NCBI GenBank assembly: GCA_964443625.1
Contig: CAYUDM010000008.1
Location: 4,550-68,549, forward strand
Source: an uncultured Smithella sp.
GTDB lineage: Bacteria; Desulfobacterota; Syntrophia; Syntrophales; Smithellaceae
DNA: 64,000 nt
Direction: 5' to 3'
In this document: piece by piece, positions 32,023 through 56,555 of the stretch
Position numbering within the stretch: the stretch's first letter is position 1
Layout: the number at the start of each line of letters is the position of its first letter
The notes under the pieces: generated by a model
What the model was told of the DNA's origin: nothing
What the model saw: the letters and a program-made list of their open reading frames with translations, nothing else
Databases searched by the model: none
Made by a program: the position numbers and the translations under genes

Positions 32023-32227
32023 GATTTCAGCCTCCCAGAATATTTTGACATCTTGTTGAATGACGTTCTTTTATAATCTTTTGAAAAGACCTTTGCAAGC
32101 GGTGAATGACGCGACGCTCCTCCCTATGATTGCACAAATGACGGCAATGGAGTATGATGCCTTTCACCGACGTCGCATCAACGTCCGGAACAACGAGCCG
32201 TTGCAACCGGTTCCCCGGTCAATATAG

Positions 32228-34387
32228 ATGAAGGAGTCTCAAATCGTGTCGAACAAACATCCTCACTTCAAAAAATGGAAAGAAGCCGCCCTGAAAGAAC
32301 TCAAAGGCAGGCCTCTGGAATCCCTCGACTGGGAAACGCCGGAAGGCATTCGCGTCAAACCGATCTATACGGCTGAAGATCTGGCCGGGCTCGACACCGT
32401 CAACACGCTGTCTGGCCTTGCCCCCTATCTGCGGGGGCCGACGGCCACGATGTACGCCAACCAGCCCTGGACCGTCCGTCAGTACGCAGGCTTTGCCACA
32501 GCCAAGGAATCCAATGAGTTCTACCGCAAAAATCTGGCGGCGGGACAAACCGGCCTGTCGGTGGCCTTTGATCTGGCCACGCACCGGGGATATGACTCCG
32601 ACCATCCCCGCGTGGCGGGCGACGTAGGCAAGGCAGGCGTCGCCATCGACTCCGTCGAGGACATGAAAATTCTGTTTGACAAGATTCCACTGGACAAGGT
32701 TTCCGTTTCCATGACGATGAACGGGGCGGTTCTTCCGGTGCTGGCAGGCTACATTGTCGCCGCCGAGGAACAGGGAGTCACGCAAAAACAACTGGCCGGC
32801 ACGATTCAAAACGACATCCTCAAAGAATTTCTCACCCGCAACACCTATATATACCCCCCTCGCCCCTCCATGCGGATCGTCTCGGACATCATCGCCTACT
32901 GTTCGCAATCCATGCCGCGTTACAACACCGTCTCCATCAGCGGCTATCACATCATGGAAGCGGGCGCCGATTCCGTTTTGCAAGTCGCCTTTACACTGGC
33001 CGACGGCCGGGAATACATTCGCGCCGCCATCGACGGCGGCCTCAAGATCGACGACTTCGCGCCACGTCTGTCTTTTTTCTTCGGCGTGGGCATGAATTTT
33101 TTTATGGAAATCGCCATGCTGCGGGCGGCACGCTACCTGTGGAACGACATCGTAAGCGAATTCAAACCGGAAAATCCGCGCTCTTCGGTGCTGCGCACGC
33201 ACGTGCAAACCTCCGGTTGGAGCCTCACGGCACAGGACCCTTACAATAACATCATCCGCACGACGCTTGAAGCCCTGGCCGCCGCGCTCGGAGGGACCCA
33301 GTCGCTGCATACCAATTCCTTCGATGAAGCGGTGAGTCTTCCCACGCAGCTTTCAGCCCGGATCGCGCGCAACACGCAGATCATTCTGCAGGAGGAATCC
33401 CAGATCTGCCACGTGGTCGATCCTCTGGGCGGCTCCTACTATATCGAATCGCTGACCGCCTCGATCATCCGCGAAGCAAAAAAGATCATCGACGAAATCG
33501 AGGAACTGGGCGGCATGGCGCGCGCGATCGAAACGGGCATGCCGAAACTTCGTATTGAAGAATCCGCCGCGCGCCGTCAGGCCCGCATCGACCACGGAAA
33601 AGATGTCATCGTCGGCGTCAACAAATATAAAGTCAAAGAGGAAACGCCTATCGACGTGCTGGAGGTTTCCGCCTCCGTGCGCGACGAACAAATCGCGCGC
33701 CTCAAAGACATTCGGGGCAAACGTGACAATGCGGCCGTGCGTCAGGCGCTTTCGAAATTGACGCTCACCGCCGAAAAAGGCGGAAATCTTCTGGAAGCGA
33801 CCATCGCGGCCGTCCGGCTGCGCGCCACGGTGGGAGAAGTGTCCGACGCGCTGGAAAAGGTCTTCGGCCGTTACGCCGCCACGACGCAGATGATTTCGGG
33901 GGCCTATGCCTCGGAATACGGCGAGGACGAAGTCATCGCGGCCTTGCGCAAACGCATCGGAGAATTCATTAATAAAACCGGCCGACGTCCGCGCATGATG
34001 GTCACCAAGATGGGCCAGGACGGCCATGACCGGGGCATCAAAGTCGTCGCGACCGCTTATGCCGACTTGGGTTTTGACGTGGATATCAGCCCGATGTTTC
34101 AAACACCGGAAGAAGCGGCGAAAATGGCCATCGAAAACGACGTGCATCTTGTCGGCGCCTCGAGTCTCGCGGCGGGGCACAAAACGCTCATCCCCGAACT
34201 GATCAGCAAACTCAAGGTCATGGGTGGAGAAGACATTCTGGTCATCGCAGGCGGCGTTATTCCACCCGCCGACTACGACTTTTTGTATTCCCGCGGTGTC
34301 AAAGGCATCTTCGGCCCCGGCACGGCCATCACCGACTCGGCGGATCAGGTCTTGCAACTGCTCGAAGAAAAGTATCTCAAAGCGTGA
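32228..34387 (+). CDS. scpA: methylmalonyl-CoA mutase (single-chain, B12-binding)
   Basis: [10 protein letters not shown] (specificity Tyr), [21 protein letters not shown]12 motif. Confidence 0.97.
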
Positions 34388-34453
34388 TTCCGGTCCGACC
34401 GGAATGGACCTTCTTAAGTTTTGCGGCGCCAACAACACAACGGAGCCAGGCCT

Positions 34454-35440
34454 ATGGAGAAATTTAAAATCCGGGATTACATTCAAGGCGTTTTGGAAAA
34501 AGATCGACGAATGCTTGCCAAAACCATCACGCTTCTCGAAAGTTCGCTGCCGGAAGACCAGGAGTGGTCGCGTCGGATTCTCGACGAGCTGATGCCGCAC
34601 ACCGGCCGGGCGCTGCGCGTGGGCATCACAGGCCTTCCGGGCGCGGGCAAAAGCACGTTTATTGAAAGTTTCGGCACGCTTTTGACACAAAAAGATCGGC
34701 GTGTCGCGGTCCTGGCGGTTGATCCCAGTTCTCCGAAAACCGGCGGATCCATCCTGGCCGATAAAACCCGGATGGAAAAACTCGCCGTGAACGACCGGGC
34801 TTTTATTCGTCCGTCGCCTTCCGGCAAGACGCTGGGCGGCGTCGCCCGCAAGACCCGTGAAACCATGCTGGTGTGCGAGGCGGCCGGTTTTGACGTCGTC
34901 ATGATCGAAACTGTCGGCGTCGGCCAGTCTGAAGTGGCGGTGGCCTCGATGGTCGATTTTTTCATGGTGCTGATGATCGCGGGCGGCGGCGACGAACTTC
35001 AGGGCATTAAAAAAGGCGTTCTGGAGCTGGCCGATCTAGTCGCCGTCAACAAGGCCGACGGGGACAACGTTGAACGGGCCAAACAGGCGCAGAGGCAGTA
35101 TGAGATGGCGTTTCATCTTTTGAGTTCGCCCTCGCGCAACTGGACGCCGCCGGTCGTCACCTGCAGTTCCATCACGGGCGCCGGTCTTGAAAACATTCTA
35201 AACAATATTCATGAGCATAGAGAAAAACTGACGATCAGCGGTGAATTTCAAAAAAAACGTCAGGAACAAAACAAAGAGTGGTTCCGTTTTCTGGTGCGTG
35301 AAGGCGTCCAGGAATGGTTTTACGCAAGTTCCGCGGGCGCCATGATGCCGGAGTTGATTGAAGCGGTCGGAAACGGCGCCATGACGCCGACCACAGCCGC
35401 GTTAAAAATTCTCGAACGGCTCAAAGGCAGCACCTTTTAA
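34454..35440 (+). CDS. meaB: methylmalonyl-CoA mutase-associated GTPase
   Basis: GITGLPGAGKST, AVDPSS, GDKTRM-like ADKTRM, ETVGVGQSE, NKADG. Confidence 0.96.
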   Translation: MEKFKIRDYIQGVLEKDRRMLAKTITLLESSLPEDQEWSRRILDELMPHTGRALRVGITGLPGAGKSTFIESFGTLLTQKDRRVAVLAVDPSSPKTGGSILADKTRMEKLAVNDRAFIRPSPSGKTLGGVARKTRETMLVCEAAGFDVVMIETVGVGQSEVAVASMVDFFMVLMIAGGGDELQGIKKGVLELADLVAVNKADGDNVERAKQAQRQYEMAFHLLSSPSRNWTPPVVTCSSITGAGLENILNNIHEHREKLTISGEFQKKRQEQNKEWFRFLVREGVQEWFYASSAGAMMPELIEAVGNGAMTPTTAALKILERLKGSTF

Positions 35441-35452
35441 AAACCGGCAGGC

Positions 35453-35511
35453 GTTAGGTGTCAGGTGTGAGGAACTTGAAACTTAAAACTTGAAACCTGA
35501 AACCTAAAACA
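35453..35511. repeat. heptamer arrays in opposed orientation
   Basis: gttaggt gtcaggt gtgagga followed by acttgaa acttaaa acttgaa acctgaa acctaaa. Confidence 0.65.
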
Positions 35512-35525
35512 TAAAGAGGTCTTCC

Positions 35526-35927
35526 ATGAAAATTTTAAAAGTGGATCATATCGGCATCGCAGTCAGAAGTCTGGCCGAAAGCGCGAAACTCTACGAGCTT
35601 CTGGGAATCGAACCGGCCGGCACGGAGGACGTGACGGAGCAAAAGGTGAAGGTCGCCTTCTATCCGCTGGGCGACACGGAAATCGAACTTCTGGAATCGA
35701 CATCGCCCGACGGACCCATCGCCCGGTATATTGAAAAAAACGGCGAAGGCCTTCAGCATCTGGCGCTGCGCGTGGATAATCTGGAAGAGGCGCTTGCCGA
35801 ACTGAAAGCCAAAGGCGTGCGCCTGATCGACGAAAAACCACGCTACGGCGCGGGCGGCGCGAAGATCGCCTTTGTCCACCCTAAATCCACCGGAGGCATT
35901 CTGCTTGAATTAAGCGAGAGAACCTAA
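35526..35927 (+). CDS. mce: methylmalonyl-CoA epimerase
   Basis: [38 protein letters not shown]; follows scpA-meaB. Confidence 0.95.
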
Positions 35928-36037: not shown

Positions 36038-36658
36038 TCAGTTGCGCAAACTATCGAGAAAACGTTCCACCGCCTCGAGGTAGAGCGATTTATACTCATC
36101 CTTGACCAAAATAGTCTTTTCCAATTTTTTAAGATGGATGATGCCGTTGAAGGCGCTCCATAGAATGATGGCCTGTCTGCGGGGATCCAGCGGTTTAAAG
36201 ATCCCGGCGTCAATTCCTTCGCGTATCGCCGAGGCGAGTGTATAGATACTGGCATTGCCCTGTTCATCGATTTTCAGTTTCAAATCAGGTGAAAAGACGG
36301 TCCCGGGAGACGTCAGAAAATAGTTGATGATATCGTAATAATTTTTATGCTCCTCACTGAAGCGCAGATAGGCCCCCGCAATCGACCGTATTTTTTCATC
36401 CGGCGAACATTCGGGGCGGATGGACGCACTGATGCTTTGACGCAGCAGATCCAGCCCTTCGAGTTGAAGGGCGGCAAAAAGCTCTTCCTTGTCCTTAAAG
36501 TAAAAATAGATCGCCCCGACACTCAATTCGGAATGCTTGGCGATCTGATTGATGGACGTTGCGGCCAGACCTTTTTCCAGAAGTAGTTTTCTGGCCGTGT
36601 CGAGGATGTGTTCCTTGCGTTGCTCTTTTTCTCTTTCCCTTCGCTCCTTGGCACCCAT
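36038..36658 (-). CDS. TetR/AcrR family transcriptional regulator
   Basis: HTH TSINQIAKHSELSVGAIYFYFKDKEELF. Confidence 0.93.
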   Translation of the reverse strand: MGAKERREREKEQRKEHILDTARKLLLEKGLAATSINQIAKHSELSVGAIYFYFKDKEELFAALQLEGLDLLRQSISASIRPECSPDEKIRSIAGAYLRFSEEHKNYYDIINYFLTSPGTVFSPDLKLKIDEQGNASIYTLASAIREGIDAGIFKPLDPRRQAIILWSAFNGIIHLKKLEKTILVKDEYKSLYLEAVERFLDSLRN

Positions 36659-36752: not shown

Positions 36753-37028
36753 TCAGCGCACAGTCATCCGGTCCGGCCCTCCGTTTTGGGAAGACTCCCT
36801 GATGACGCGAACATCAAACCACGGTTTCTGCCGCTTTAAGGGACACAAGGCCGCCTTACAAAAACGGATCGGGTCCTCGGGAGGCGCTTTGATGTATTGA
36901 AAAGGCGCCTCCCGATTTTTCAAAAGCCAGGCTTCGGCTTCTGTGCGCGAATTGACGAAGCCGGCCGAATACGTTGTTCTGCCGCGGCAGTGAACAAAGC
37001 CGTATATGAGTTCATAGCGCTCACACAT
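36753..37028 (-). CDS. hypothetical protein (91 aa, 4 Cys)
   Basis: Fills the gap 12 nt after the Zn-dehydrogenase stop, on the same strand; no family recognised. Confidence 0.55.
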   Translation of the reverse strand: MCERYELIYGFVHCRGRTTYSAGFVNSRTEAEAWLLKNREAPFQYIKAPPEDPIRFCKAALCPLKRQKPWFDVRVIRESSQNGGPDRMTVR

Positions 37029-37040: not shown

Positions 37041-38063
37041 CTAAAACTCCTCACCGATTTGCAAAAGCACCTTCACGGCCAGACCGGCATCGATTCTCTC
37101 CTTGTAAACAACCGGCAGACGCGACAGCGGTTCATAATCGGAGATGAGCGGCCTCGCGTCAATTTTCCCTTCGGCCATCCACTGCAGACACTGAATGTTC
37201 TCCGCATGTGTGTTGGAGTTCGATGCCGTCAGATGGATTTCCTTGAGATTGACCAAAAAAGGCGCGTCAATCGTCAGCGGCGTAAAAATCATACTGACGA
37301 TGCAGACTTCTCCGCCGTCAGCAGATAAAAGTATTGCGCGATTGATATTGTCCTTCACACCGGAACATTCAAAGATCTTCCGAAATCCTCCCGGAACAAG
37401 GGCCATCGCCTGCTCGTCCGCATCTTTTTCCAAGGGATTCAATACGTAATCCGCGCCATAGCGCAAAGCAATGTCCCGTTTGGCGGCTATCGGCTCGTAT
37501 AAAACGACCGGTCCGTATCCGAGAATTTTAAGGATGCGCACCGCGCACAGCCCGATCGGTCCGCCGCCCATCACCAGCACGGAACCCTGCGCGTCGCTTG
37601 TACAATTGATACCATGCAGTGCCGCGGCAAATGTCTCCGCGAGCGCCGCGTTTCGCGAATCGACGCCCGCGGGAATCTCGATGAGCATTTGGGGAAAAAC
37701 TTTGACGTATTCCGCAAAGCCGCCCGGCAAATCTCCGATGCCTGTGGTGCGCCGGTGAACACGGCAAAGCTGCTGCCTACCGTTTTTACAGTTCACGCAC
37801 TTCCCGCAGTAGGTGGGACGGATGCAAACCCTTGTCCCCACCGGCGGCCCGCCGGCCTTTGCGCCTTTTTCGACGATGCCGGCGCTGATTTCGTGCCCGA
37901 GGATGTAGCCCTCGGCCAGATGACCGCCCGCCACCAGAGAATGATCGGATCCGCAGAATCCCGTATTGGCGACTTTCACCAGGACTTCGTCTTCGGCTAC
38001 CGAATAGTCGGGGACGTCTTCATAAACCAATCCACTCTCTTTTCGAAACACAACAGCTTTCAT
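37041..38063 (-). CDS. Zn-dependent alcohol/polyol dehydrogenase (MDR)
   Basis: GFCGSDH, GHE, structural Zn site CGKCVNC...C, GGGPIG. Confidence 0.93.
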   Translation of the reverse strand: MKAVVFRKESGLVYEDVPDYSVAEDEVLVKVANTGFCGSDHSLVAGGHLAEGYILGHEISAGIVEKGAKAGGPPVGTRVCIRPTYCGKCVNCKNGRQQLCRVHRRTTGIGDLPGGFAEYVKVFPQMLIEIPAGVDSRNAALAETFAAALHGINCTSDAQGSVLVMGGGPIGLCAVRILKILGYGPVVLYEPIAAKRDIALRYGADYVLNPLEKDADEQAMALVPGGFRKIFECSGVKDNINRAILLSADGGEVCIVSMIFTPLTIDAPFLVNLKEIHLTASNSNTHAENIQCLQWMAEGKIDARPLISDYEPLSRLPVVYKERIDAGLAVKVLLQIGEEF

Positions 38064-38088
38064 CGTCTCCTCACCTTGTACCTTCTTT

Positions 38089-39387
38089 TCAATCCTCACA
38101 CACCAACGTAATTTTTTCCACCTTGCTTAAGTCCTTCTCGTAAAAGAAGGAGCCGGCAAAAAACATCAGAGCGGAAACCACCAGAAAAACGGGCAAAATC
38201 GACATGGCCATCTGGATGCCGTGAAGGTCGGACAATTTGCCGATCACAATGGGCGCAAGCGACGCTCCCAAAAGGTTCTGAACCACGACGCACACAGAGT
38301 AGGAAATAGCCCGCAGTCCCGGATGGATGACCTCCTGCGTGGCGGTAATGGCGGCCGGGGCGAACGCGGACGCAAGAACCCCCATCCCCAGAAGGGTAAA
38401 ATATTGCGCCTGGCCGGAAAGATACGAAATCGCGATAAAAATGACTGCGGCATTGAGCGCAGTTGTGATCGCAGGAAACAGCAGACGGGCTCTTTGCCGT
38501 TTTTTAAACCACAAATCAGCCAGCCAGCCGCCCAGCGGCAGACCGACAAGCGCCAGGATCATCAGCAGGCTGACTTTCATGCCCGCATCACTCATGGGGA
38601 TGCCTGTCGTTCGATGCAGGTACGGAGGCATCCACATAATAATGGCATTATTGACGAAGATGCAGCCGACAAACCCGAGGTTGGTAAAAATCAGGGAGGG
38701 CGTTCGCAGAAACTCCCGGACAATATCCATTTTCCCCATCTTGATTTTTACGGAAGGGTCTGCGCAGGACGCATCGGTTTTGACCAGCTCCACCGTCTTG
38801 TAATCCTTGATGAAGAAGAAAAGGATCGCGACCAGCGCGCCGGGAATCGCCACCAGGCCGAAAGCATGCCGCCAGCCCCAGTGCGTGGCGATAAAACCAC
38901 CCAGCCCCATCCCGACGGCAATGCCCAGCGGGATGGAAATGTTCCAAAGCCCCATCATGCGGGATCGCTTTTCCGGAGGGAACAATCCGGAGAGCATCGC
39001 CGTGCCTGCCGGGGCATAGCCGGCTTCGCCGATCCCGATGCAGGCGCGGGCCACGAGCAACTGGGGAAAGGTCCGGGTGAAAGCGCAGGCGGCCGTCGCC
39101 AGGCTCCAAAACAGAGCCATCACGCCCACCGTCTTTTTCCGGCTCCAGCGATCCACGATGATGGAAATGGGAAACACCAGAGCCACAATGGACCAGTAAA
39201 CGACCGACATTAAAAGTCCGGCCTGAAAGTCTGAAAGCCCCCACTCCTCTTGAATAAAAGGAGCAAGGGACGCCACAATCGTTCGATCGACGTAATCAAA
39301 GAAATACAAAAGAAACAGCAGCGCGAAAATGTAATAGGTGCTGGCCTTGGACAGTTTGTACTCCCTGGGTGCAGTTTCGTTATTCAT
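38089..39387 (-). CDS. MFS transporter (spinster/ACS-like)
   Basis: DYVDRTIV, DRWSRKK, RACIGIGEA, about 12 TM segments. Confidence 0.93.
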   Translation of the reverse strand: MNNETAPREYKLSKASTYYIFALLFLLYFFDYVDRTIVASLAPFIQEEWGLSDFQAGLLMSVVYWSIVALVFPISIIVDRWSRKKTVGVMALFWSLATAACAFTRTFPQLLVARACIGIGEAGYAPAGTAMLSGLFPPEKRSRMMGLWNISIPLGIAVGMGLGGFIATHWGWRHAFGLVAIPGALVAILFFFIKDYKTVELVKTDASCADPSVKIKMGKMDIVREFLRTPSLIFTNLGFVGCIFVNNAIIMWMPPYLHRTTGIPMSDAGMKVSLLMILALVGLPLGGWLADLWFKKRQRARLLFPAITTALNAAVIFIAISYLSGQAQYFTLLGMGVLASAFAPAAITATQEVIHPGLRAISYSVCVVVQNLLGASLAPIVIGKLSDLHGIQMAMSILPVFLVVSALMFFAGSFFYEKDLSKVEKITLVCED

Positions 39388-39461
39388 AGGAACCCCTTAT
39401 CTCGTGAGAAAAGGCGCAACTTGTCGGACCGTTCCTGAAAGCGGCAACGAGAAATTGTACC

Positions 39462-41159
39462 TTAATTACATTTGTATCCTCCCAGATTGGCCAGGGCGAC
39501 ACTGCCGGGGCTGATCACAGAGGGATCCACTTTAACATTAATACAGGCGGTTTTGCCGGAGGCAAATGCCGCTTCCAAAGCCGGAGCAATATCATCCGGT
39601 TTTTCCACGTACGCGCCGAATCCGCCCAACACCTCCACCATCTTGTGGTAATCCACCCAGCCCAACTCCGTTCCGTTGGGAATGTTGTGACCCAACCGAA
39701 GTGTCTGGCTGTGCGCGATCATCCCCCAGGACGCATCATTGGCAACAACGACCACAATGGGAAGCTTCTTGCGGATGGCCGTGTGGAATTCCATGAAATT
39801 GAAACCGGTTGCCCCATCGCCGATAATCAATAAAACACGCTGATCCGGATGTTTGAGTTTGGCCGCGTTGGCGTAGGGAATACCGACGGCCAGACATCCG
39901 TAAAGACCATAGTCGAGATAGGTGCCTCCTTTGACGACCGTCCGCGTCATACCCATCCACGTGGAGGTATCGCCGCCGTCGGCAACGACGATATCATCGG
40001 GCCGGTTCATGAATTTGTTGACTTCATGGGCCAATCGCATGGGATGCATGGGCAGGGTTTCGCATTCCCACATGGCCTTGGCATCATTCTTCCCGGCTTC
40101 ATGCGCAGCGCGCACAGTCTCCACCCAGGGCGAATACTGCGCCCAGAGCGCATCGCCGATTTTCTGTTCGTCGATCACCGCGTTGAGCTCCTTCAGGAAG
40201 GATTTGATGTCGCTGACAATCGGCAGATCGACGGTGCGGTTGCGTCCGATTTCATCCGGCGCGATATCGACCTGAATAAATTTTGCCGCAGGCGGAAAAA
40301 TGTCGCCGAAGATATAGAAAAGACTCAAACGGCCGCCCAGGAAAAGCACCAGATCGGTGGTCATGAGCGTGATCATGGCCGAGCCGGGCCGGATCGCCAG
40401 GGAGGATTCAAAGCAAAGCGGATGGGTGTCGGGAAGAACGCCGCGCCCCGCGCCGCCCGTGTAAACCGGAATACCGATCTTTTCCACGAATTCGATCATT
40501 TCTTTTTCTGCGTCCGAGTACCACAGACCGCTGCCGCCGATCACGATGGGATTTTTGGCCGCTTTCAGAAGATCAACAACCTTGCGTGTGTTTTCACGGT
40601 CGACCGGTTTGGAGTCGATCGTTGTGCTGGGCTTTCTAACCAGGCTCATGTCCACTTTGGCGTTGAGAATATTGCAGGGAAACTCCAGATAGACGGGTCC
40701 CGGCCGACCGCTCATCGCCGCTCGAAACGCCATATCGACATACTCGGGAATGCGTTCCGGCACATGGCAGACAAAGGCCTTCTTCACCATCGGTTCAATC
40801 ACGGGAAGTTGCGTCATATCCTGAAGGTCCAGCTTTTCGGTGGCCTCGGTGCCCACGCAGCCGGCAATGAGCACCACGGGCGCATTGGAAAGTCGCGCGC
40901 TGGCGATGCCGGTTAAGGCATTGGTGAAACCGGGGCCGGCCGTAACCATCGCCACCGCCGGCTTTCGGGTCATCCGGGCCGACGCTTCGGCCATGAAAAC
41001 GGCCGCCTGTTCGTGACGCACATCAAAAAGGGTGATGTTTGTTTTTTCCAGATACTGATAAATGGGCGTAATGTGCCCGCCGCTTAAGGAATAAATATAA
41101 TCCACGCCCCGGTCGACCAGGGCGTCCGCAACAAGTTTTCCGCCGATAATGTTATCCAT
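39462..41159 (-). CDS. ThDP-dependent enzyme, HACL2/ILVBL/benzaldehyde-lyase-like
   Basis: SGGHI, DVRHE, TAGPG, LQD, ADGGDT, GDG...NDASWG ThDP motif. Confidence 0.85.
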   Translation of the reverse strand: MDNIIGGKLVADALVDRGVDYIYSLSGGHITPIYQYLEKTNITLFDVRHEQAAVFMAEASARMTRKPAVAMVTAGPGFTNALTGIASARLSNAPVVLIAGCVGTEATEKLDLQDMTQLPVIEPMVKKAFVCHVPERIPEYVDMAFRAAMSGRPGPVYLEFPCNILNAKVDMSLVRKPSTTIDSKPVDRENTRKVVDLLKAAKNPIVIGGSGLWYSDAEKEMIEFVEKIGIPVYTGGAGRGVLPDTHPLCFESSLAIRPGSAMITLMTTDLVLFLGGRLSLFYIFGDIFPPAAKFIQVDIAPDEIGRNRTVDLPIVSDIKSFLKELNAVIDEQKIGDALWAQYSPWVETVRAAHEAGKNDAKAMWECETLPMHPMRLAHEVNKFMNRPDDIVVADGGDTSTWMGMTRTVVKGGTYLDYGLYGCLAVGIPYANAAKLKHPDQRVLLIIGDGATGFNFMEFHTAIRKKLPIVVVVANDASWGMIAHSQTLRLGHNIPNGTELGWVDYHKMVEVLGGFGAYVEKPDDIAPALEAAFASGKTACINVKVDPSVISPGSVALANLGGYKCN

Positions 41160-41186
41160 AATAAATCCTCCTAAAACAAATTGATT

Positions 41187-42026
41187 TTATAACTCCATAC
41201 ATTGACCGCCATCGATGTTGATCGCTTGGCCGGTCATATATTTTGACGCATCCGACGCCAGGAAAGCCACCAGGTCGCCCGCTTCGGAAGGCGCGCCGAT
41301 GTAGCCCAGCGGGATCGTCTTGCACATTTCCTTTTCGCGCTCCTCAACCGTTGTGCCAAAGAAGGATGCCTCCAGGCCGAAGCGCCACTTTTCCAGATCG
41401 GTGGCGATCTGCCCCGGACAGATGGCGTTTACCCTTATGCCGTTTCCGCCCAGTTCCTTGGCCATCGTTTTGGTCAGCATGATCACCCCCGCCTTCGCCA
41501 CCGCATAGGCGCTGTTGAAAAGCGGCGGAACTTTTCCGGCCCGGGATGCCGTATTGATGATGACGGCGGGCTTGCCCATCATCAAAGGGATGACGGCTCT
41601 TGAGATGCGGAAGACGGAAAACAGGTTCACATCGATGGTTCTGATCCAGGCCGCCTCGTCATATCCCAAAACTGTATTGGGCACGCCGAAAGACGCGCCC
41701 GCGTTATTGCACAGAATGTCGATGCGGTCGAAGGTCGCTTTGATGGTTTCCACCATGGCGCCGATGGCCTGATTGTCCGTCACGTCCACGGTCACGGCCA
41801 GAGTTTTTACGCCATAGGTCTTGGCAAGCTCCGCGGCGATGGCTTCCATTTCCCCGCTGGTGGCGGATTTCAGGGATTCGCCCGGAACCGGCGGTTGGCC
41901 CAGATCGGCAATCACGATGTTGCATCCGTTTGCGGCCAGTTTTTCGGCAATGGCGTAGCCGATGCCGGTTTTTTTGCCGGCCCCTGTCACGATGGCTGTT
42001 TTTCCTTTCAAATCACTATAAATCAT
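41187..42026 (-). CDS. short-chain dehydrogenase/reductase (likely NAD-dependent)
   Basis: [23 protein letters not shown]; start overlaps the xsc stop, RBS GAAGGAGG. Confidence 0.92.
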
Positions 42027-43779
42027 CTGCTCCTCCTTCATCATACCAACGACGATAGTCCAGGTGCGCGTACTTGGGAAGCATGCGCGTCGGCAGCGCG
42101 AGCGCATCCTTGCGGAAAGGCGGCGCCAGCTGTTTTCCGTCTACCAGGAATTCCAGCACGGTGGGTTTGCGGCTCTTGATGCAGGCAAGGAATGCCTCCC
42201 GGATATCCTGCGGACGGCTGACCTGCATGCTGTTGGCCCCCATAGCTTTCGCGACCGGCACAAAACTTTCAGGATTCGGAATATCCACGCCGACGAAGCG
42301 GTTATTGTAGAAATCGACCTGGTTTTTGGCCTCCGCGCCCCACCACATATTGCGGAAGACGCAGGCGATCACGGGCAGATTGTGCTCCACGGCCGTGCTG
42401 ACTTCGTGCAGGCTCATTCCCCAGGCGCCGTCACCGATGATGGCGACAACCGGCGACTTGGGCTTGGCAATCTGCGCGCCGAGCGCCGCCGGATAGGCAA
42501 AGCCCGTGTTGCCGAAGGTGAGCGCCGCGATATGCCGGCGGGGATGGTTGAACTTCAGATAGCTGTTGGCTGTTGAGGAAACATTGCCGATATCGGTGGT
42601 CACGATGGCGTCATCTGGAAGCGCCCGTGCGATTTCCAGCAAAACCCGGCGCGGATTCATGGGGTTTCCGTCCACCATCGCCAGATCGACAAGTTCCTTT
42701 TCCCATTTCTTCTTCTCTCGGGCCACCGCCGTCAGCCTCTTTTCATCCGGCTTGCGTTTACCGTCTTTCGCTTTCAGGCGCTTCAGAATTTCCGCGGAGG
42801 CTTCCTTGGCATCCCCGATAATGCCCACGGAAATGGGGTGCGTGCGGGCGATGTGCTTGGGATTGATATCGACCTGGATGATCTTCGCGTTTTCGGGGAA
42901 GTAGTTGATGTCATATTGCGGCAAGGTGCCGAAAACGGACAGCCTGGTGCCGATGGCCAGCATGACGTCGGCTTTCGCCAGCGTCTTCATGGCCGCCTTG
43001 GACCCCATGTAGCCGATGGGCCCGACAGAAAGGGGATGGTTGCCGTAAAACGCATCGTTGTGCAGGTAGGTCACCGCCACCGGCGCCGTCAGATGTTCGG
43101 CGATCGCTTTGACAATGTCCAGCGCGTCGGCGTCCACCACGCCCCGTCCCGAAACAATGACCGGATTTTTCGCCTGCGACAAAAGCTCGGCCGCGCGATC
43201 AAGCTGCTCAATGGCGCCGCAGCCGCGCGCATCCACCCGGTATTGTGACGGCTGCAGAATTCTTTCTTCCAGTTCACCGTAGAAATAGTCGCGGGGAATG
43301 TCATAGAGCACAGCGCCGCGGTCGGCATAGGCGATGCGGAAAGCCGTTCTCAAACAATCAGCCGCCCTCTTCGGATGAGGCACTCGGACAACGGCTTTGG
43401 TGATGGCCCGGAAAACCGACATCTGGTCGCATTCCTGAAAACCGTCCCAGCCGATCGTCGGCGTTCCGGCCGAAGGCGAGAGAATGACCAGCGGCGTATG
43501 CCCCATATTGGCGGCGGCGACCGACGTGACCATATTGGTGATGCCGGGACCGTTTTGCCCGGTGACGACGCCGCAACGCCCCGATACGCGGCAGTAGGCG
43601 TCTTCCATATGCGCGGCGCTCTGTTCGTGGCGGACGGGAATGAATTTTATTCCCGCCGTCGGAAAGAGATCCAGCATGTCCATAAAGGCCGAGCCGACGA
43701 TGCCGCAGACATGATCCACGCCTTCGGCCAGCAGGGTCTCCACAATCGCTTCACTGGGCGTCATTTTGATTTTTTTCAT
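42016..43779 (-). CDS. xsc: sulfoacetaldehyde acetyltransferase
   Basis: [84 protein letters not shown]. Confidence 0.93.
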
Positions 43780-43850: not shown

Positions 43851-45056
43851 TCACGACTGATTTTGCAAAACCGACCCTGTCTCCCGGGCAATCATCTTCT
43901 CCTCGTCTGTCGGCACGACAAAAACCTTGATCTTCGATTCCGGCGCGGAGATGTCTCTTTCCGGCAAACCGGCCTTGTTTTGATCTTCATCCAGAACAAT
44001 CCCCAACCATGCCAGAAAGGCGCAGATCCGGCCACGCATCGGCGGCGAATTTTCACCGACTCCCGCCGTGAACGCCAGCGCGTCGAGTCCGCCTGCGGCC
44101 GGAATCATAGATCCCACGCCGCGCGCCACGCTGTAGGCGAAAACATTGAGTGCAAGCGTCGCTCTTTCGTTGCCTCGTGCCGCTTCCTTTTCCAAATCCC
44201 GGAAGTCCGGAGAGATGCCGGAAATTCCGAAAACACCGCTTTGCCGGTTCAGAATATCGAGGGCTCCGTCAATCGAACAATGCTCTTTTGCCATCATGTA
44301 GGACACGACCGCCGGGTCAATATCTCCCGAGCGTGTGCCCATGACCAGCCCCGAAAGGGGTGTGAACCCCATCGACGTATCCAGAGACTTGCCTGCCGCC
44401 ACGGCGCAGAGGCTCGATCCCGCCCCGAGGTGACAGGTGATGATTCGGGGCGCATGGATTTTGCCTTGCAGAAGTTCGGCGACGCGGACCGCCACGTAGC
44501 GGTGCGAGGTGCCGTGAAAACCGTAGCGGCGGACAGCATCCTCGCTGTAGTAACGGTAAGGAATCGCGTAGGTATAGGCATAAGGCGGCATAGTGGAATG
44601 GAAGGCCGTATCGAAGACCGCAACTTGCGGCACGCCGGGCATCAATTTCGTGCAGACATCGATGCCCATCAGATTCGGCGGATTGTGCAGTGGCGCAAGC
44701 GCTTTTGTTTTTTCCAGGATTGTCCGGACAGGACCATCGACGATAACGGATGACCGAAACTGTTCACCACCGTGAACGACCCGGTGTCCGACACCGGCAA
44801 TTTCACGGATGTCGGACAAGACACCGTGCTTGGGATCGGCCAGAAAAGACAACAGAACAAGGACCGCCCGCGAATGATCGGGGAGGTCCACGACGGTTTC
44901 CCCGGCTTGCCCCCCGACTGACTCATAGCGAAACCGCGCATCGGAAAGTCCGATCCGGTCGGCCTGACCCGACGCCAGAACCCGGCCTGTTTCCATCTCA
45001 AAGAGTTTGTATTTGAGTGATGAGCTGCCGCAATTTAAAACCAGAATCTTCATCAT
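43851..45056 (-). CDS. ackA: acetate kinase
   Basis: ILVLNCGSSSLKY, GHRVVHGG, APLHNP, FDTAFH, YGFHGTSH, HLGAGSS, FTAGVGEN, PTDEE. Confidence 0.97.
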   Translation of the reverse strand: MMKILVLNCGSSSLKYKLFEMETGRVLASGQADRIGLSDARFRYESVGGQAGETVVDLPDHSRAVLVLLSFLADPKHGVLSDIREIAGVGHRVVHGGEQFRSSVIVDGPVRTILEKTKALAPLHNPPNLMGIDVCTKLMPGVPQVAVFDTAFHSTMPPYAYTYAIPYRYYSEDAVRRYGFHGTSHRYVAVRVAELLQGKIHAPRIITCHLGAGSSLCAVAAGKSLDTSMGFTPLSGLVMGTRSGDIDPAVVSYMMAKEHCSIDGALDILNRQSGVFGISGISPDFRDLEKEAARGNERATLALNVFAYSVARGVGSMIPAAGGLDALAFTAGVGENSPPMRGRICAFLAWLGIVLDEDQNKAGLPERDISAPESKIKVFVVPTDEEKMIARETGSVLQNQS

Positions 45057-45063: not shown

Positions 45064-46764
45064 TCAATCCAGATCTTCTTTCTCCGGCCACAAATACATG
45101 CCGCCTTCCAGGGTGCGGACATCCGGAAAACCCGCCGCATCCAACACGCGTTGAGCGGAAAACCCTCTCAGCCCGAGAAGACAGACACAGACAATCTTTT
45201 TGTCTTTGGGCAGTTCAGAGAGTCTCGAACGCAGTTCATCAAGCGGAATATTAATCACTTTGGGACTGCTGATGTGAGCGCGCCGAAATTCCCGATCCGA
45301 TCGAACGTCCACCATCAAGACATCGTCGTCATGATCCAGAAGCTCTCTGGCCGCGAGCGCCGTTATCGGTTTCATCAAGCCGGCTGTGACATTTTCCGCA
45401 ACATGAAGCGCCGTGATGAAAACATCCACCGCCTGCGAAAAAGGCGGCGCATAGGCCATATCCAGAGAAGCGATATCCTGAATGGTCGCGCCAAGCCGTA
45501 TGGCGGTCGCGGCCACATCGATACGGCGGACGATATCGCCCTTCCCCACGGCCTGCATTCCCAGAAGCTTGTGAGTGCCGTTTTCCAGGACCAGTTTCAA
45601 TCCCAGAATCTGGCTGTCGGGGTAATAATGGGCCTTATCAAATCCGCATACGGACAGCGCAAAGGCATCGAGGCCCTCTCGCTTTGCCTGCATCTCCGTA
45701 ACACCGGTGGCGCCGACAGAGTAATCAAAGGCCTTGCAGATGAAGGTGCCCTGCACACCGGGAAACTCCGAAGGAATGCCGCAGATGTTGTCGGCAATCA
45801 CCCTGCCGTGTTTGTTGGCGGTGGAGCCCAGCGGAATGTAACAAGGCTTGCCCGTCATGATATGCGTGCTTTCCACCAGGTCTCCGCCGGCATAAATATC
45901 CGGATCGCCGGTCTGCAAACGGGCATTGACCCGAAGCGCGCGAGTTTCGCCCAGGTCCAAACCCGCGGCCACAGCCATCTCCGTATTGGGCTGCAAACCG
46001 GCGGCGACAAGAACAAGGTCGGCGGAATATTCGTTCGTTCGGGTCATAACGCGGCCGATCTTTCCGCTTTGTCCCGCAAAGGAGAGGATCTCAGCGTTCA
46101 ATTCACATTCCACGAGGTTTTCAAAGAAATGCTCCCGGATCATCGCCGAGATTTCATAGTCGAGCATTCCCGGAAAAAGCTGCCCTTCACGTTCCAGAAG
46201 CGTCACGTCCCATTTTCTGGCGCGCAGGGCTTCTGCCATCTCCACTCCGATAAAGCCTCCACCGACGATCACGGCGGCGCCGGGCTTGCGCTTTTCGATC
46301 TCGCTCGCCAGGGCATTGGCATCTTCCATGCGGGTCAGATGGTATATCCCTTTTAAATCCGATCCCGGAATCGGAGGCATCTTAGGCCTTGCGCCCATCG
46401 CGAGCACCAGAGCATCATATTCAAATGAGAGCAATTCCCCTGTGACCATGTTCGTCGCACCGACCGTGCGATGTTTCCGGTCGATGGAGAGAACCCTGAT
46501 CTGCGTGCAAATGGTCGTATCCTTGAGATCCTTAAAATACTGGACGTCGCGAATCCGGCCATACGTGGTTTTCATCAGATCGTCCCGCTCGCGGATTTTT
46601 CCTTCCAGATAGTACGGCATGCCGCAGGCGGCATAGGATATAAACCGGCTCTGGTCCAAAATGGTAACCGCATAGTCGGGACGCAGGCGTTTGATGCGCG
46701 AGGCGGCTTTCGCGCCGCAGGCGGATGCTCCGATGATCAGAATTTGCTTTGAATCATTCATCAT
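45064..46764 (-). CDS. CoA-disulfide/persulfide reductase-rhodanese flavoprotein (CoADR-RHD/Npsr-like)
   Basis: IIGASACG FAD site, SYAACGMPY redox Cys, GGGFIGVE NADH site, YAPPF, C-terminal rhodanese DVRS...CLLGLRG. Confidence 0.88.
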   Translation of the reverse strand: MMNDSKQILIIGASACGAKAASRIKRLRPDYAVTILDQSRFISYAACGMPYYLEGKIRERDDLMKTTYGRIRDVQYFKDLKDTTICTQIRVLSIDRKHRTVGATNMVTGELLSFEYDALVLAMGARPKMPPIPGSDLKGIYHLTRMEDANALASEIEKRKPGAAVIVGGGFIGVEMAEALRARKWDVTLLEREGQLFPGMLDYEISAMIREHFFENLVECELNAEILSFAGQSGKIGRVMTRTNEYSADLVLVAAGLQPNTEMAVAAGLDLGETRALRVNARLQTGDPDIYAGGDLVESTHIMTGKPCYIPLGSTANKHGRVIADNICGIPSEFPGVQGTFICKAFDYSVGATGVTEMQAKREGLDAFALSVCGFDKAHYYPDSQILGLKLVLENGTHKLLGMQAVGKGDIVRRIDVAATAIRLGATIQDIASLDMAYAPPFSQAVDVFITALHVAENVTAGLMKPITALAARELLDHDDDVLMVDVRSDREFRRAHISSPKVINIPLDELRSRLSELPKDKKIVCVCLLGLRGFSAQRVLDAAGFPDVRTLEGGMYLWPEKEDLD

Positions 46765-47945
46765 TTTATGCCTTTGTTTTCGCACCTGACGTTGTCTACA
46801 TCCTTGCGGACGGCGACAAAAATCCGGTACAGTAAGGTCAGAATCAAAAGTCCCACCGCCCAGATGCCCAGTGTGATGGCGATTTCCGGTCCCGTCGGGT
46901 GATATTCGGAAATGGCTTCCAGCGGCGATGGAATAAACCCGGTAATGACCAGACCCAGGCCCTTTTCAATCCAGAGCGAGACAAAGACGGCGACGCAGGC
47001 CAGAGCCAGCCACCCTTCATTATGCCGGATCTTTGGAATAACCAGCATGAGCAGCGCAGCAAACGCCAGCAAGGCAGAGGCCCACATCCAGGGGACCAGG
47101 TTGTCATAGCCGTGCAGGCCGGCAAACAAATAGATGAAGTGAGCCTCATGCTCCGGCAGACCGCTGTAAAAGACCGTGAAGATTTCCACCCCGACGAAAA
47201 AGATACTGATGGCCAGCGCGTAGGCGACGATTTTCGATAACGTCCGGATCGCTTTTTGACCCGCGTCGAAACGGCCGAGATACTTCAGAATCAGGCAAAT
47301 CAGAATCAATAGCGCCGGGCCCGAGGCAAACGCGGAGGCCAGAAACCGAGGCGCCATGATGGCGGTGAGCCAGAAGCTCCGCCCCGGAAGGCCTGCATAG
47401 ATGAAGGCTGTTACCGTATGGATGCTGATCGCCCAGGGAATCGACAGGTAGATGATCGGCTTGACCCAGGAAGGCGGCGGGATTTCTTTTTTTGTACAGG
47501 ACAAAACAACCCAGCCGGTGATCAGATTGATCAACAAATACCCCGACAGGACCACCATATCCCAAAAAAGAATGGATGCCGGCTGCGGATGCAGAAGCAC
47601 GTTCATCACACGGGAGGGCTGGCCCAGATCAACAACAACAAACAGGATGCACATCACAACGGCGGCGACGGCGAGAAACTCGCCCAGGACGGTGATCCTG
47701 CCGAATGCCTTGTAGTCGTGCAGGTAGTAGGGCAAAACCAGCATCACGGCCGAGGCGGCCACGCCGACCAGAAAGGTGAACTGGGCGATGTAGAGTCCCC
47801 AGGAAACATCCCGGCTCATCCCCGTGATTCCCAGGCCGTAGTCCAGCTGCTGAAGATAAAAGAAGAAACCGGTTGCGGCAAGTCCCAGCAGAAAGGCGAT
47901 CCAGACCCAGTAAACGCGGCTGCCTTTTAAGGCTTTTTCCAGCAT
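46761..47945 (-). CDS. dsrP: DsrP (NrfD/PsrC family membrane subunit)
   Basis: GITGMSRDVSWGLYIAQFTFLVGVAASA, DLGQP, SILFWD, SIHTVTAF, PRFLASAF. Confidence 0.95.
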   Translation of the reverse strand: MLEKALKGSRVYWVWIAFLLGLAATGFFFYLQQLDYGLGITGMSRDVSWGLYIAQFTFLVGVAASAVMLVLPYYLHDYKAFGRITVLGEFLAVAAVVMCILFVVVDLGQPSRVMNVLLHPQPASILFWDMVVLSGYLLINLITGWVVLSCTKKEIPPPSWVKPIIYLSIPWAISIHTVTAFIYAGLPGRSFWLTAIMAPRFLASAFASGPALLILICLILKYLGRFDAGQKAIRTLSKIVAYALAISIFFVGVEIFTVFYSGLPEHEAHFIYLFAGLHGYDNLVPWMWASALLAFAALLMLVIPKIRHNEGWLALACVAVFVSLWIEKGLGLVITGFIPSPLEAISEYHPTGPEIAITLGIWAVGLLILTLLYRIFVAVRKDVDNVRCENKGIK

Positions 47946-47952
47946 GGCATCC

Positions 47953-48729
47953 TCACAGGATATAATAGATCTGCGGCGCGGTGCCTAAGTGGGGCCGCCT
48001 TCGCAGGTTAAAACGTGTTTCCAGAAGTTTGCGGATTTCCGAGCTCGGATCCTCCAGATCACCGAACACGATGGCTTTGTGTTTGCAAGCCAGGACACAG
48101 GCCGGAAGCTGTCCTTTGGCCAGCCGCTCTTCACAGAAGTTGCACTTCTCCACGACGCCTCTGGCGCGTGTCGGAAAGTCCGGATGGAGCTTCGCGATAA
48201 ACGGGCGCGGGTCGCGGAAATTCATGCTCCGCGCGCCGTAGGGACAGGCGGCCATGCAAAGCCGGCAGCCGATGCAGCGGTGGTAATCCATCATGACGAT
48301 GCCGTCTTGCCGTTTAAACGTCGCCTGCGTCGGGCAGACCCGGACACAGGGAGGATTTTCGCACTGATTGCACAAAACGGGAATTCTGAGATTCTGAATC
48401 GCTTTTCCCTGGTAGGGGTGATCCTCCGCCGGAAAAACGGAAGAAAAAGGCTCGGTCCAGATCCACTTGACTTCATCTTTGGGATTGCTGAAGTCGGGGA
48501 CATTATGCACCGCGTGGCAGGCGGTGATGCAGTCGGTGCAGTCGGTGCTGCATCGGGACATATCAATCGCCATGGCCCAACGCTTGGCCGAAAGCGAGTT
48601 GACGGACAAAGAAGTCTGCCCCGGAATCGGGAAGTTTTCGCCCGCCCGGGCCGGAAGAAGGGGGAACGTGATCAACGTCAAGGCGGACGCTCCGGCAATT
48701 TTCAAAAAGTCTCTGCGGTTCGTCGTCAT
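47953..48729 (-). CDS. dsrO: DsrO, Tat-exported 4Fe-4S protein
   Basis: RRDFLK Tat motif, CxxCxxxC clusters, CIGCRLCMAACP, VEKCNFC. Confidence 0.95.
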   Translation of the reverse strand: MTTNRRDFLKIAGASALTLITFPLLPARAGENFPIPGQTSLSVNSLSAKRWAMAIDMSRCSTDCTDCITACHAVHNVPDFSNPKDEVKWIWTEPFSSVFPAEDHPYQGKAIQNLRIPVLCNQCENPPCVRVCPTQATFKRQDGIVMMDYHRCIGCRLCMAACPYGARSMNFRDPRPFIAKLHPDFPTRARGVVEKCNFCEERLAKGQLPACVLACKHKAIVFGDLEDPSSEIRKLLETRFNLRRRPHLGTAPQIYYIL

Positions 48730-49136
48730 TTTTTCACCTCTTCCGGAACAAGATGACAGCTATAGCAGGTGGGTTTGGCGCCCACGTAATCATGACAGCG
48801 GTCGCAGAATTGTTCCTTGTTGCTGTGGCAGCGAAGGCAGGAATGGGTCAGGCTTTTTTCGAACTTGCGGCCGTCTTTCGCGGTGTACTGGCGTTTGCCT
48901 TCTCGAACGGCCTCATCGCGCCAGCCCTTGAGCATCTTCATATGATCCGTGCGCATCACGGCCGTATCTTCGACGCATTTTTTGTCCTGCATTGACTGAA
49001 TAACGGGCGTATCCAGACTGAGCACAGGCGCCGGCGCTGATTGAATCGCGCCGTACCAGAAGGGAAAAGTAGCCCCGAGAAGGAAGATTCCCAAACCCAG
49101 AAGAATTAAACCCCATTTATATTGTTTCATCTTCAC
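48726..49136 (-). CDS. dsrJ: DsrJ triheme cytochrome c
   Basis: N-terminal TM, CVE...MRTDHM, CLRCH, CDRCH, CYSCH. Confidence 0.95.
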   Translation of the reverse strand: MKMKQYKWGLILLGLGIFLLGATFPFWYGAIQSAPAPVLSLDTPVIQSMQDKKCVEDTAVMRTDHMKMLKGWRDEAVREGKRQYTAKDGRKFEKSLTHSCLRCHSNKEQFCDRCHDYVGAKPTCYSCHLVPEEVKK

Positions 49137-49160
49137 ACGTTCCGTAATATGTTTACGTTC

Positions 49161-49291
49161 AGCTATGAGCTATGAGCTGCGAGCTGCACCCCATTCACCC
49201 TCCCCCTGCCCCTCCCATCAAGGGAGGGGAGGTGATTCAATTATTCGTGCTATTCCCTCTCCCCACGTGGGAGAGGGTCAGGATGAGGGGG
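49161..49291. repeat. heptamer array plus an inverted pair of CCCTC(T)CCC-N5-GGGAG(A)GGG REP-like hairpins
   Basis: agctatg x2, agctgcg, agctgca (49161-49188); unit A 49189-49230; unit B 49253-49291 in the opposite orientation. Confidence 0.8.
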
Positions 49292-50888: not shown

Positions 50889-50890
50889 GG

Positions 50891-56528: not shown

Positions 56529-56555
56529 ATCTTTCTACCTGATATCGTGCGACTC

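Follow-up and report, generated by a model that had tools for sequence, protein, structure and literature searches.

A conserved pair of a short-chain dehydrogenase and an orphan thiamine diphosphate enzyme beside xsc and dsr genes in uncultured Syntrophales, and a possible route from C3 sulfonates to sulfoacetaldehyde

The DNA analysed here (the window) is a stretch of 64,000 nucleotides from an uncultured Smithella sp. (GenBank assembly GCA_964443625.1, contig CAYUDM010000008.1). Between positions 37041 and 43779 it carries five genes, all on the minus strand, which encode sulfoacetaldehyde acetyltransferase (Xsc), a short-chain dehydrogenase/reductase (SDR), a second thiamine diphosphate (ThDP)-dependent enzyme, a major facilitator superfamily (MFS) transporter and a zinc-dependent alcohol dehydrogenase (Zn-ADH). 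On re-analysis their content, order and coordinates were as described in an initial annotation, made from the sequence alone, which had proposed a new route to sulfoacetaldehyde. In the order of reading the genes are:

42016-43779, minus strand: xsc, sulfoacetaldehyde acetyltransferase, 587 aa, three TPP_enzyme domains (TIGR03457 853 bits, cut-off 676.4; PRK07525 848.7 bits, cut-off 620)
41187-42026, minus strand: classical SDR, 279 aa, a length shared with its relatives (PF13561/PF00106; no NCBIfam cut-off reached)
39462-41159, minus strand: ThDP enzyme, 565 aa, three TPP_enzyme domains (N, M, C), below every NCBIfam cut-off
38089-39387, minus strand: MFS transporter of the anion:cation symporter type, 432 aa (PF07690; TIGR00893 178.5 bits, below cut-off)
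37041-38063, minus strand: Zn-dependent medium-chain dehydrogenase, threonine-dehydrogenase-like, 340 aa (PF08240, ADH_N, and PF00107, ADH_zinc_N)

By its profile match, the product of the first gene is a true sulfoacetaldehyde acetyltransferase, since the equivalog cut-off of TIGR03457 is exceeded, and the match spans residues 5-570 of 587. The ATG of the SDR gene lies 11 nt ahead of the xsc stop, so that the two genes overlap, both in the window and in the related locus L001. The five genes belong to a longer co-oriented array, which runs dsrABDNC, dsrMK-like, dsrMKJOP, a gene for a CoA-disulfide-reductase-like protein with a rhodanese domain, ackA, xsc, SDR, ThDP enzyme, MFS, Zn-ADH, a small open reading frame (ORF) and a TetR-family regulator. 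Packing on the strand is tight: neighbouring genes are 8-94 nt apart or overlap. The initial annotation had omitted ackA, directly upstream of xsc, and the continuation of the block from a complete dsr locus:

51889-59035, minus strand: dsrA, dsrB, dsrD, dsrN and dsrC with a second DsrMK-like pair (profile matches)
46761-51892, minus strand: dsrMKJOP electron-transfer complex (DsrP 485, DsrO 312, DsrJ 154, DsrK 746 and DsrM 456 bits, all above cut-off)
43851-45053, minus strand: ackA, acetate kinase, about 400 aa (PF00871 in the orthologous loci, and the translation)

DsrA matched its profile with 564 bits, DsrB with 528 and the DsrC family with 118; a CobB-type amidase at the DsrN position gave 426 bits, and a DsrD match was also found. 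With dsrA, dsrB, dsrC and dsrMKJOP above the curated cut-offs, the locus belongs to the dissimilatory sulfite reductase type.

One genome per species was scanned for relatives of the ThDP protein, and the ORFs around each match were called and compared with the window proteins. This gave 80 loci, 67-93% identical in the ThDP protein, all of them from metagenome-assembled genomes (MAGs) of Smithellaceae/Syntrophaceae/Syntrophales or of Spirochaetota/Leptospirales. Identity of 76% or above to the ThDP protein is found in over 120 protein clusters, whose members are nearly all exactly 565 aa long. In every locus with at least 1 kb of upstream sequence (71 of 71), the SDR gene immediately precedes the ThDP gene. 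Where at least 4.5 kb is available upstream, xsc is found within the locus in 34 of 54 cases, two frameshifted copies included, and ackA in 29 of 54. The block is thus kept beside xsc, as the initial annotation would expect, in three gene orders (ackA-xsc-SDR-ThDP, xsc-ackA-SDR-ThDP and SDR-xsc-ThDP) and in both Syntrophales and Spirochaetota/Leptospirales. The Xsc of Leptospirales is about 50% identical to that of the window, yet above the Xsc cut-off (770 bits). The genes downstream vary more: some loci have the MFS and Zn-ADH genes and others an SBF-family carrier and a second SDR (PRK06181-type), which are non-homologous equivalents, while the SDR-ThDP pair stays. Of the 65 loci whose downstream sequence extends for 3 kb or more, 39 have a TetR gene. 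In addition, in five loci with no xsc nearby (L026, L039, L041, L042 and L044) the order SDR-ThDP-MFS-(ZnADH)-TetR is followed immediately by dsrA, dsrB, dsrN and dsrC. The core thus consists of the SDR-ThDP pair, a carrier and usually a second dehydrogenase and TetR, and is repeatedly tied to Xsc/AckA and Dsr. This linkage is the main evidence that the substrate of the core is a sulfonate. The arrangement is far beyond chance; it recurs with rearranged gene order in dozens of independent MAGs of two phyla.

Two side observations concern these loci. The frameshifted xsc copies (L018, 7781-9106; L049, 7391-9131) are split into two or three frames, through assembly error or as pseudogenes. In a Leptospiraceae MAG (L061, 3994-5286), thiC, the gene for thiamine pyrimidine synthase, lies just upstream of SDR-xsc-ThDP, which is consistent with an operon of two ThDP enzymes.

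The ThDP enzyme stands outside the named families. Its best NCBIfam matches were the mycobacterial 2-hydroxyacyl-CoA lyase (HACL)-like PRK05858 (409 bits, cut-off 587) and the actinobacterial HACL model NF058623 (345 bits, cut-off 600). The oxalyl-CoA decarboxylase (OXC) models PRK09259 and TIGR03254 gave 305 and 288 bits (cut-offs 557 and 739), and the Xsc model 246 bits against 676, so the enzyme is not a second Xsc. Among the models of acetolactate synthase (ALS), TIGR00118 (biosynthetic) gave 308 bits against 538 and TIGR02418 (AlsS) 233 against 551; the PRK models of ALS were all far below their cut-offs, and no ALS small-subunit, ilv or bud gene was found near the ThDP gene in the loci inspected. 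Judged by these scores the enzyme is not an acetolactate synthase, in line with the initial annotation. Among solved structures the best matches were the alphaproteobacterial HACL/S enzyme ApbHACS (282 bits) and benzaldehyde lyase (BAL, 258 bits), and a search of the PDB with the representative P0139 ranked HACL/S first. The alignment with BAL is collinear over residues 3-557, with about 31-32% identity.

The motifs quoted in the initial annotation, GGHI (27-30), LQD (112-114), DGGDT (394-398) and ND..WG (474-479, NDASWG in the window), are all present and are invariant in 32 aligned orthologues. For comparison of single residues, the sequence of AcHACL was recovered from a PDB alignment (query representative P0178) and aligned with the window enzyme, BAL and ApbHACS. 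His29, Thr73, Leu112-Gln113 and Glu50 of BAL are kept, and are invariant in 71 orthologues; His29, Thr73, Leu112 and Gln113 correspond to AcHACL His44, Thr88, Leu127 and Gln128, whose catalytic roles in AcHACL/BAL-type enzymes have been described (PMC8760513, PMC13327070). The substrate pocket of BAL is replaced, mostly by small polar residues (W163C, Y397S, L398T, H415Y, F484S and A480M; Cys162, Ser399, Tyr417 and Ser484 in window numbering). The enzyme lacks the aromatic pocket of BAL; it acts like BAL at best, and is not an orthologue of the benzoin lyase. Compared with BAL of Pseudomonas fluorescens (PDB 2AG0) and the engineered formolase, it shares the five residues named above, and with BAL also the ADG..T..W and N(N/D).SWG motifs and the absence of the acyl-CoA arginines; it differs from BAL in its C-terminal tail, which is invariant among its own orthologues (SPGSVALANLGGYK), and in its context, which is sulfonate/sulfite metabolism rather than benzoin metabolism.

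The acyl-CoA arginines R273 and R417 of AcHACL (R260 and R400 of ApbHACS) are replaced by Ala261 and Gly403 in all orthologues compared, and BAL has Phe and Ser there. All seven CoA contacts of AcHACL (Q255, R273, S274, R362, R417, D561 and K564) are altered, to G, A, M, G, G, G and A. AcHACL Glu493 corresponds to Ile481. The contacts in AcHACL are known from PMC8760513, and the arginines R260/R400 of HACL/S, together with its C-terminal R/K/Q/W set, from PMC11271303; inspection of the unaligned C-terminal tail of the ThDP enzyme revealed no comparable basic/aromatic cluster. Moreover, no CoA ligase, CoA transferase or formyl-CoA transferase (frc) occurs among the neighbour families common to at least three of the about 80 loci. 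Thus AcHACL (7PT1), ApbHACS (8VZA) and OXC share with the ThDP enzyme the fold and the three domains, give its highest scores among characterised families and, in the case of AcHACL, have the same Gly-His/Thr/Leu-Gln half-site, whereas the ThDP enzyme falls below all family cut-offs and lacks the CoA residues, Glu493 and partner genes for CoA activation or formyl-CoA handling. Because the CoA arginines are replaced and no CoA-activating gene is conserved nearby, the enzyme is best seen as an orphan and probably CoA-independent member of the BAL/AcHACL-like branch. The likeness to HACL2 and BAL seen in the initial annotation stands as a matter of branch, by the Gly-His, Thr and Leu-Gln set; the HACL-type option is not supported.

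ComDE is either a two-subunit enzyme or a fusion of PYR and PP domains without a middle domain. The presence of all three domains within 565 aa rules out membership of the ThDP enzyme in ComDE, but not a sulfopyruvate decarboxylase activity. In agreement with the initial annotation, no aminotransferase, ComDE-like or SauST-like gene was found among the larger window ORFs scanned, a greedy set of at least 90 aa that leaves out a few, for example 10708-11661, 13291-13797 and the end fragment 63396-64001.

The SDR carries the conserved motifs S-R-A-G-K (at the catalytic Ser), Y-x3-K and W-R-F (in the substrate loop), and the basic residues of the first and last would suit a substrate with a negative charge. 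Among its family matches are 3-hydroxybutyrate dehydrogenases (about 165-173 bits), as might be expected if it oxidised a hydroxyl in the position beta to a sulfonate group. The best PDB matches of the Zn-ADH reached about 120-131 bits. Searches of the PDB with the SDR and the Zn-ADH returned only generic proteins (FabG, gluconate-5-dehydrogenase, 3-hydroxybutyrate dehydrogenase and threonine-dehydrogenase-like) and no sulfonate dehydrogenase, and tblastn against a plasmid collection, which lacks the Cupriavidus pinatubonensis megaplasmid NC_007336, gave generic matches of about 33% only. The MFS transporter is presumed to be the substrate importer. In Pfam make-up the SDR, Zn-ADH and MFS proteins are the same as HpsO (PF13561), HpsP (PF08240 and PF00107) and HpsU (MFS), of which HpsO and HpsP are the dehydrogenases of 2,3-dihydroxypropanesulfonate (DHPS) acting at C2, and HpsU is the DHPS carrier, in C. 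pinatubonensis (PMC11382572). The parallel with the DHPS pathway drawn in the initial annotation thus holds at the level of families. As a side observation, the SDR has an insertion of about 28 aa after beta2 (residues about 41-70) and aligns end to end with the model of the mycofactocin-coupled SDRs (181 bits against a cut-off of 300), a subfamily in which the insertion goes with non-exchangeable NAD.

An exhaustive search of 1.84 billion cluster representatives showed how isolated the ThDP family is: outside it, identity drops to 51%, 46% and 46% in the three nearest relatives and to 43% or less in the remainder. The nearest representative, P0121 (51%; L088, 1-9710), lies alongside a B12-binding mutase subunit, MeaB, two thiolases, DUF35 and an acyl-CoA dehydrogenase. 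It lacks both acyl-CoA arginines and has Pro-Gly-Glu-Ser where the ThDP enzyme has Ser-Gly-Gly-His, that is, Ser in place of His29. P0122 has an SDR directly upstream as its only companion, and the genes after P0123 encode an AbfD-like enzyme, a thiolase accompanied by DUF35, a cyclase and an amidohydrolase. From these gene contexts, the wider clade appears to be devoted to making or breaking C-C bonds beside a carbonyl in strict anaerobes. The neighbours of P0121 match the acetone-induced set of Desulfococcus biacutus and Desulfosarcina cetonica, where a ThDP enzyme has been proposed to couple acetone with a C1 unit not yet identified (PMC4103992, PMC7888143); orthology is judged from this context only. 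A threonine-dehydrogenase-like Zn-ADH and an SDR are likewise part of the D. biacutus set, and both systems occur in sulfate/sulfite-reducing Deltaproteobacteria. The two differ in that the conserved module here has no mutase, and the reaction of the acetone enzyme is itself still hypothetical. The residues of P0121 may bear on the failure of formyl-CoA as a C1 donor in published extracts, and more generally these nearest relatives may bear on the ThDP-dependent activation of acetone in sulfate reducers.

We tentatively favour an organosulfonate-respiration operon in which the five genes handle the carbon and are joined to a complete dsr locus, with DHPS used by way of a CoA-independent ThDP lyase; this reading is plausible, but could easily be wrong. 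We infer from the genes all the chemistry ahead of Xsc: which substrate is used, where it is oxidised, that a C-C bond is cleaved and what becomes of C1. A C3 hydroxysulfonate, most likely DHPS, would be imported by the MFS transporter (by the SBF carrier in other genomes). The SDR would oxidise the C2 hydroxyl, and the Zn-ADH, or elsewhere the second SDR, would take the other enantiomer, as HpsO and HpsP do, with achiral 3-sulfo-hydroxyacetone as the product. The ThDP enzyme would then add to the C2 carbonyl and break the C1-C2 bond with the help of His29 and Gln113 and without CoA. C1 would depart as formaldehyde, or as formate if it were first oxidised to the aldehyde, a variant that would resemble the chemistry of cyclohexane-1,2-dione hydrolase. 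The ThDP-bound two-carbon fragment would be protonated and released as sulfoacetaldehyde, which Xsc would convert to acetyl phosphate and sulfite. AckA would take the acetyl phosphate and make ATP, and DsrAB, DsrC and DsrMKJOP would reduce the sulfite to sulfide. The overall conversion of DHPS to acetate, CO2, H2S and H2O is balanced in atoms, charge and electrons. A bolder claim is possible but doubtful: that this enzyme is the founding member of a natural family of aliphatic C-C lyases that need no CoA, and that it splits 3-sulfo-hydroxyacetone, or else sulfolactaldehyde, to give sulfoacetaldehyde and a free C1 unit.

The DHPS system of C. pinatubonensis and the Roseobacter group likewise has an MFS importer, an SDR and a Zn-ADH of the same Pfam families, Xsc and acetyl phosphate, but HpsN, SlcD/SlcC/ComC, ComDE and SuyAB have no counterpart here (PMC11382572); an hpsN-like gene was found in none of the loci. 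A three-domain BAL-like ThDP enzyme stands in place of the three to four steps from DHPS through sulfolactate and sulfopyruvate to sulfoacetaldehyde, AckA takes the place of Pta, and the operon, joined to dsr, belongs to an anaerobic host. In the strict anaerobe Taurinivorans muris, as proposed here, Xsc cleaves sulfoacetaldehyde and Dsr respires the sulfite (PMC10507020). However, T. muris obtains sulfoacetaldehyde from taurine by an aminotransferase; the SDR-ThDP pair takes that place here.

Several observations weigh against the DHPS route. Among the 54 loci with enough upstream sequence, 20 (about 37%) have no xsc within 10 kb, and in L048 (7906-11695) dsrMKJOP-ackA is followed directly by SDR-ThDP, with no space for xsc. 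In a group of orthologues that we call type D (67-68% identical; L077, 7156-14069, and also L080, L083 and L084), neither xsc nor dsr is present, so the SDR-ThDP pair is not confined to Xsc-linked chemistry. The mappable pocket positions of the ThDP enzyme hold no conserved Arg or Lys for a sulfonate, whereas the Xsc of the window has Arg and Lys at two of them; candidates for a sulfonate site in the ThDP enzyme are Lys109, Arg488, His491, Lys563 and the Ser/Thr/Tyr pocket at 398-400, 417 and 484. The AlphaFold2 (AF2) model of the enzyme resembled HACL/S, BAL, formolase and AcHACL to about the same degree (TM 0.73-0.78) and did not discriminate among them, and its active-site loops are unreliable: the mean pLDDT is 71.8, with values below 50 in loops 103-115, 396-422, 481-498 and 549-565. 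The likeness to HpsO and HpsP is one of Pfam families only. Free formaldehyde would be toxic, and no gene for handling it is conserved in the block. Finally, every organism found to bear the operon is uncultured and represented by MAGs only.

The type D operon consists of an SDR, an HgdC-like acyl-CoA dehydratase activase (TIGR00241, 284 bits), a further SDR, the ThDP enzyme, an AbfD-like protein and a third SDR, with a TRAP transporter divergent upstream. The AbfD-like protein belongs to the HpaB family, resembles 4-hydroxybutyryl-CoA dehydratase and has the CxxxC and H..C motifs. An activase beside an AbfD-like enzyme without HgdAB is unusual. In the pocket, the xsc-linked enzymes have Ser/Ala399, Thr400 and Tyr417 where type D has Gln, Val/Ile and Ser.

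The most credible alternative to the DHPS route, though an unlikely one, is that sulfolactate is the substrate. The SDR, with the second dehydrogenase for the other enantiomer, would then form 3-sulfopyruvate, the ThDP enzyme would decarboxylate it to sulfoacetaldehyde and CO2, and Xsc would follow. This is the logic of SlcD, ComDE and Xsc carried out by non-homologous enzymes, a logic established in Roseobacters (PMC11382572). Its by-product, CO2, is harmless, and one dehydrogenase with the ThDP enzyme would be enough, which matches the minimal loci L026 and L039 (SDR-ThDP-MFS-TetR). The three conserved basic residues of the SDR, near the catalytic Ser and in the substrate loop, would suit a dianion, and the type D operon can be read as leading from 2-oxoglutarate through succinate semialdehyde to 4-hydroxybutyrate, which would make the family one of omega-anionic 2-oxoacid decarboxylases. 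However, the characterised Gly-His enzymes compared (BAL, formolase and AcHACL) are C-C lyases or ligases, and none is a decarboxylase. SBF (BASS-type) carriers fit monoanions better than dianions, and it is such a carrier that replaces the MFS transporter in many loci. In addition, sulfolactate gives only two of the six electrons required for reducing its own sulfite, and the SDR and Zn-ADH differ from the known families of sulfolactate dehydrogenase while matching those of HpsO and HpsP (PMC11382572).

It is quite unlikely, in our view, that the substrate is isethionate, which the SDR and/or the Zn-ADH would oxidise directly to sulfoacetaldehyde, the ThDP enzyme having an auxiliary part such as the handling of an aldehyde by-product. 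Isethionate is a beta-hydroxysulfonate and would suit an SDR whose best family matches include 3-hydroxybutyrate dehydrogenases, and Xsc, AckA and Dsr would suffice as a pathway, as in T. muris after the deamination of taurine (PMC10507020). But such a scheme leaves the invariable coupling of SDR and ThDP genes unexplained, and gives no reason why the pair stays while the transporter and the second dehydrogenase are swapped; the retention of a 565-aa enzyme at no less than 76% identity over more than 120 protein clusters points to strong selection within the operon. Direct oxidation of isethionate, the simpler alternative named in the initial annotation, may still apply to the accessory Zn-ADH.

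The module might also degrade a non-sulfonated vicinal diol, acyloin or diketone, its place beside xsc and dsr being due to nothing more than common regulation or ancestry. About a third of the loci have no xsc within 10 kb, the distant relatives P0121, P0122 and P0123 (46-51% identical) stand in non-sulfur contexts, and the mapped pocket shows no obvious Arg or Lys for binding a sulfonate. Such a non-sulfonate role is nevertheless improbable: the linkage to xsc outlasts three gene orders, two phyla and a divergent Xsc, dsrAB often adjoins the module where xsc does not, xsc and the SDR gene overlap by 11 nt in the window and L001, and the xsc-linked pocket residues differ from those of type D, as would fit a substrate particular to the xsc-linked set. 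The conversion of sulfolactate through sulfolactyl-CoA to formyl-CoA and sulfoacetaldehyde, an option raised in the initial annotation and suggested by the top sequence and fold matches to HACL-type enzymes and the PYR-domain catalytic residues in common with AcHACL, is hardly tenable, given profile scores well under the cut-offs, the altered CoA contacts, both acyl-CoA arginines replaced as in BAL, Ile481 for Glu493, the tail without an apparent HACL/S-like cluster, and a neighbourhood in which the sole CoA-transferase of the window lies 5 kb away.

In full-text searches of the literature we found no description of the cluster, of the proposed ketone intermediate or of Xsc in Smithella or Syntrophales, and no ThDP route other than ComDE from a C3 sulfonate to sulfoacetaldehyde. 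Both the end of the pathway (Xsc, AckA and Dsr) and its likely entry dehydrogenases are of familiar kinds, unlike the ThDP enzyme that connects them and the fusion of this enzyme with the dsr locus in Syntrophales and Spirochaetota. Few organosulfur compounds are more abundant than DHPS, sulfolactate and isethionate, and the anaerobic breakdown of these three is a source of hydrogen sulfide in sediments, groundwater, digesters and guts. The anaerobic routes known so far use SuyAB or oxygen-sensitive glycyl-radical enzymes. Should the DHPS route be correct, it would be a new anaerobic way from organic sulfonates to hydrogen sulfide, in which C-C cleavage by a ThDP enzyme delivers sulfoacetaldehyde to Xsc, and a fourth anaerobic DHPS pathway beside those of SuyAB, HpsG and HpsF/HpfG. 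It would amount to a radical-free, oxygen-independent and redox-balanced respiration of DHPS to H2S by uncultured Syntrophales and Spirochaetota, and would suggest that the complete dsr loci of 'syntrophic' Smithellaceae/Syntrophaceae and some Spirochaetota serve to respire sulfonate-derived sulfite. Meanwhile, a large, highly conserved and unnamed family annotated everywhere as 'acetolactate synthase' would receive a function. As a natural counterpart to engineered formolase and glycolaldehyde-synthase chemistry, a small-aliphatic acyloin lyase/ligase of this kind would also be of interest for biocatalysis.

The remaining features of the array and its surroundings are:

45064-46785, minus strand: CoA-disulfide-reductase-like flavoprotein with a C-terminal rhodanese domain (TIGR03385 405 bits, below the cut-off of 579; Pyr_redox_2 and Rhodanese)
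36753-37028, minus strand: small ORF between the Zn-ADH and TetR genes, with several conserved Cys (82-91 aa; kept in 22 loci)
36038-36658, minus strand: TetR-family regulator, 206 aa, which closes the operon (PF00440 and PF13305)

The flavoprotein gene, between dsrP and ackA, has counterparts in only five related loci and is thus optional. The small ORF matches no Pfam or NCBIfam family. The second DsrMK-like pair (51889-54467, minus strand), between dsrC and dsrMKJOP, consists of a DsrK-like protein (336 bits, below cut-off) and a Nitrate_red_gam-type membrane partner. A scan for promoter and terminator consensus sequences gave fewer promoter-like sites than in shuffled sequences and no convincing internal terminator. 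Recent horizontal transfer of the block was considered and set aside, as base composition shows no sign of it (GC 0.52-0.59 across the window).

On the other side of the operon (28198-35927), genes for a fused methylmalonyl-CoA mutase (719 aa), MeaB and a glyoxalase-fold epimerase converge on it, and beyond them an SDR and the CoA-transferase (663 aa, 29204-31195) lie on the minus strand. This neighbourhood is probably one of propionate metabolism; its genes were rejected as members of the pathway because only the closest relative, L010, has the same neighbourhood. An AMP-binding acyl-CoA ligase at 13866-15566 is unrelated to the operon. An aldehyde:ferredoxin oxidoreductase gene (61266-63347, plus strand) lies about 2 kb beyond dsrA on the opposite strand, and was rejected as a conserved sink for C1 units or aldehydes, as it shows no conservation with the module. 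In L056, a different aldehyde:ferredoxin oxidoreductase (5649-7451, 30% identical) directly follows the ThDP gene, which hints that an aldehyde product is oxidised there.

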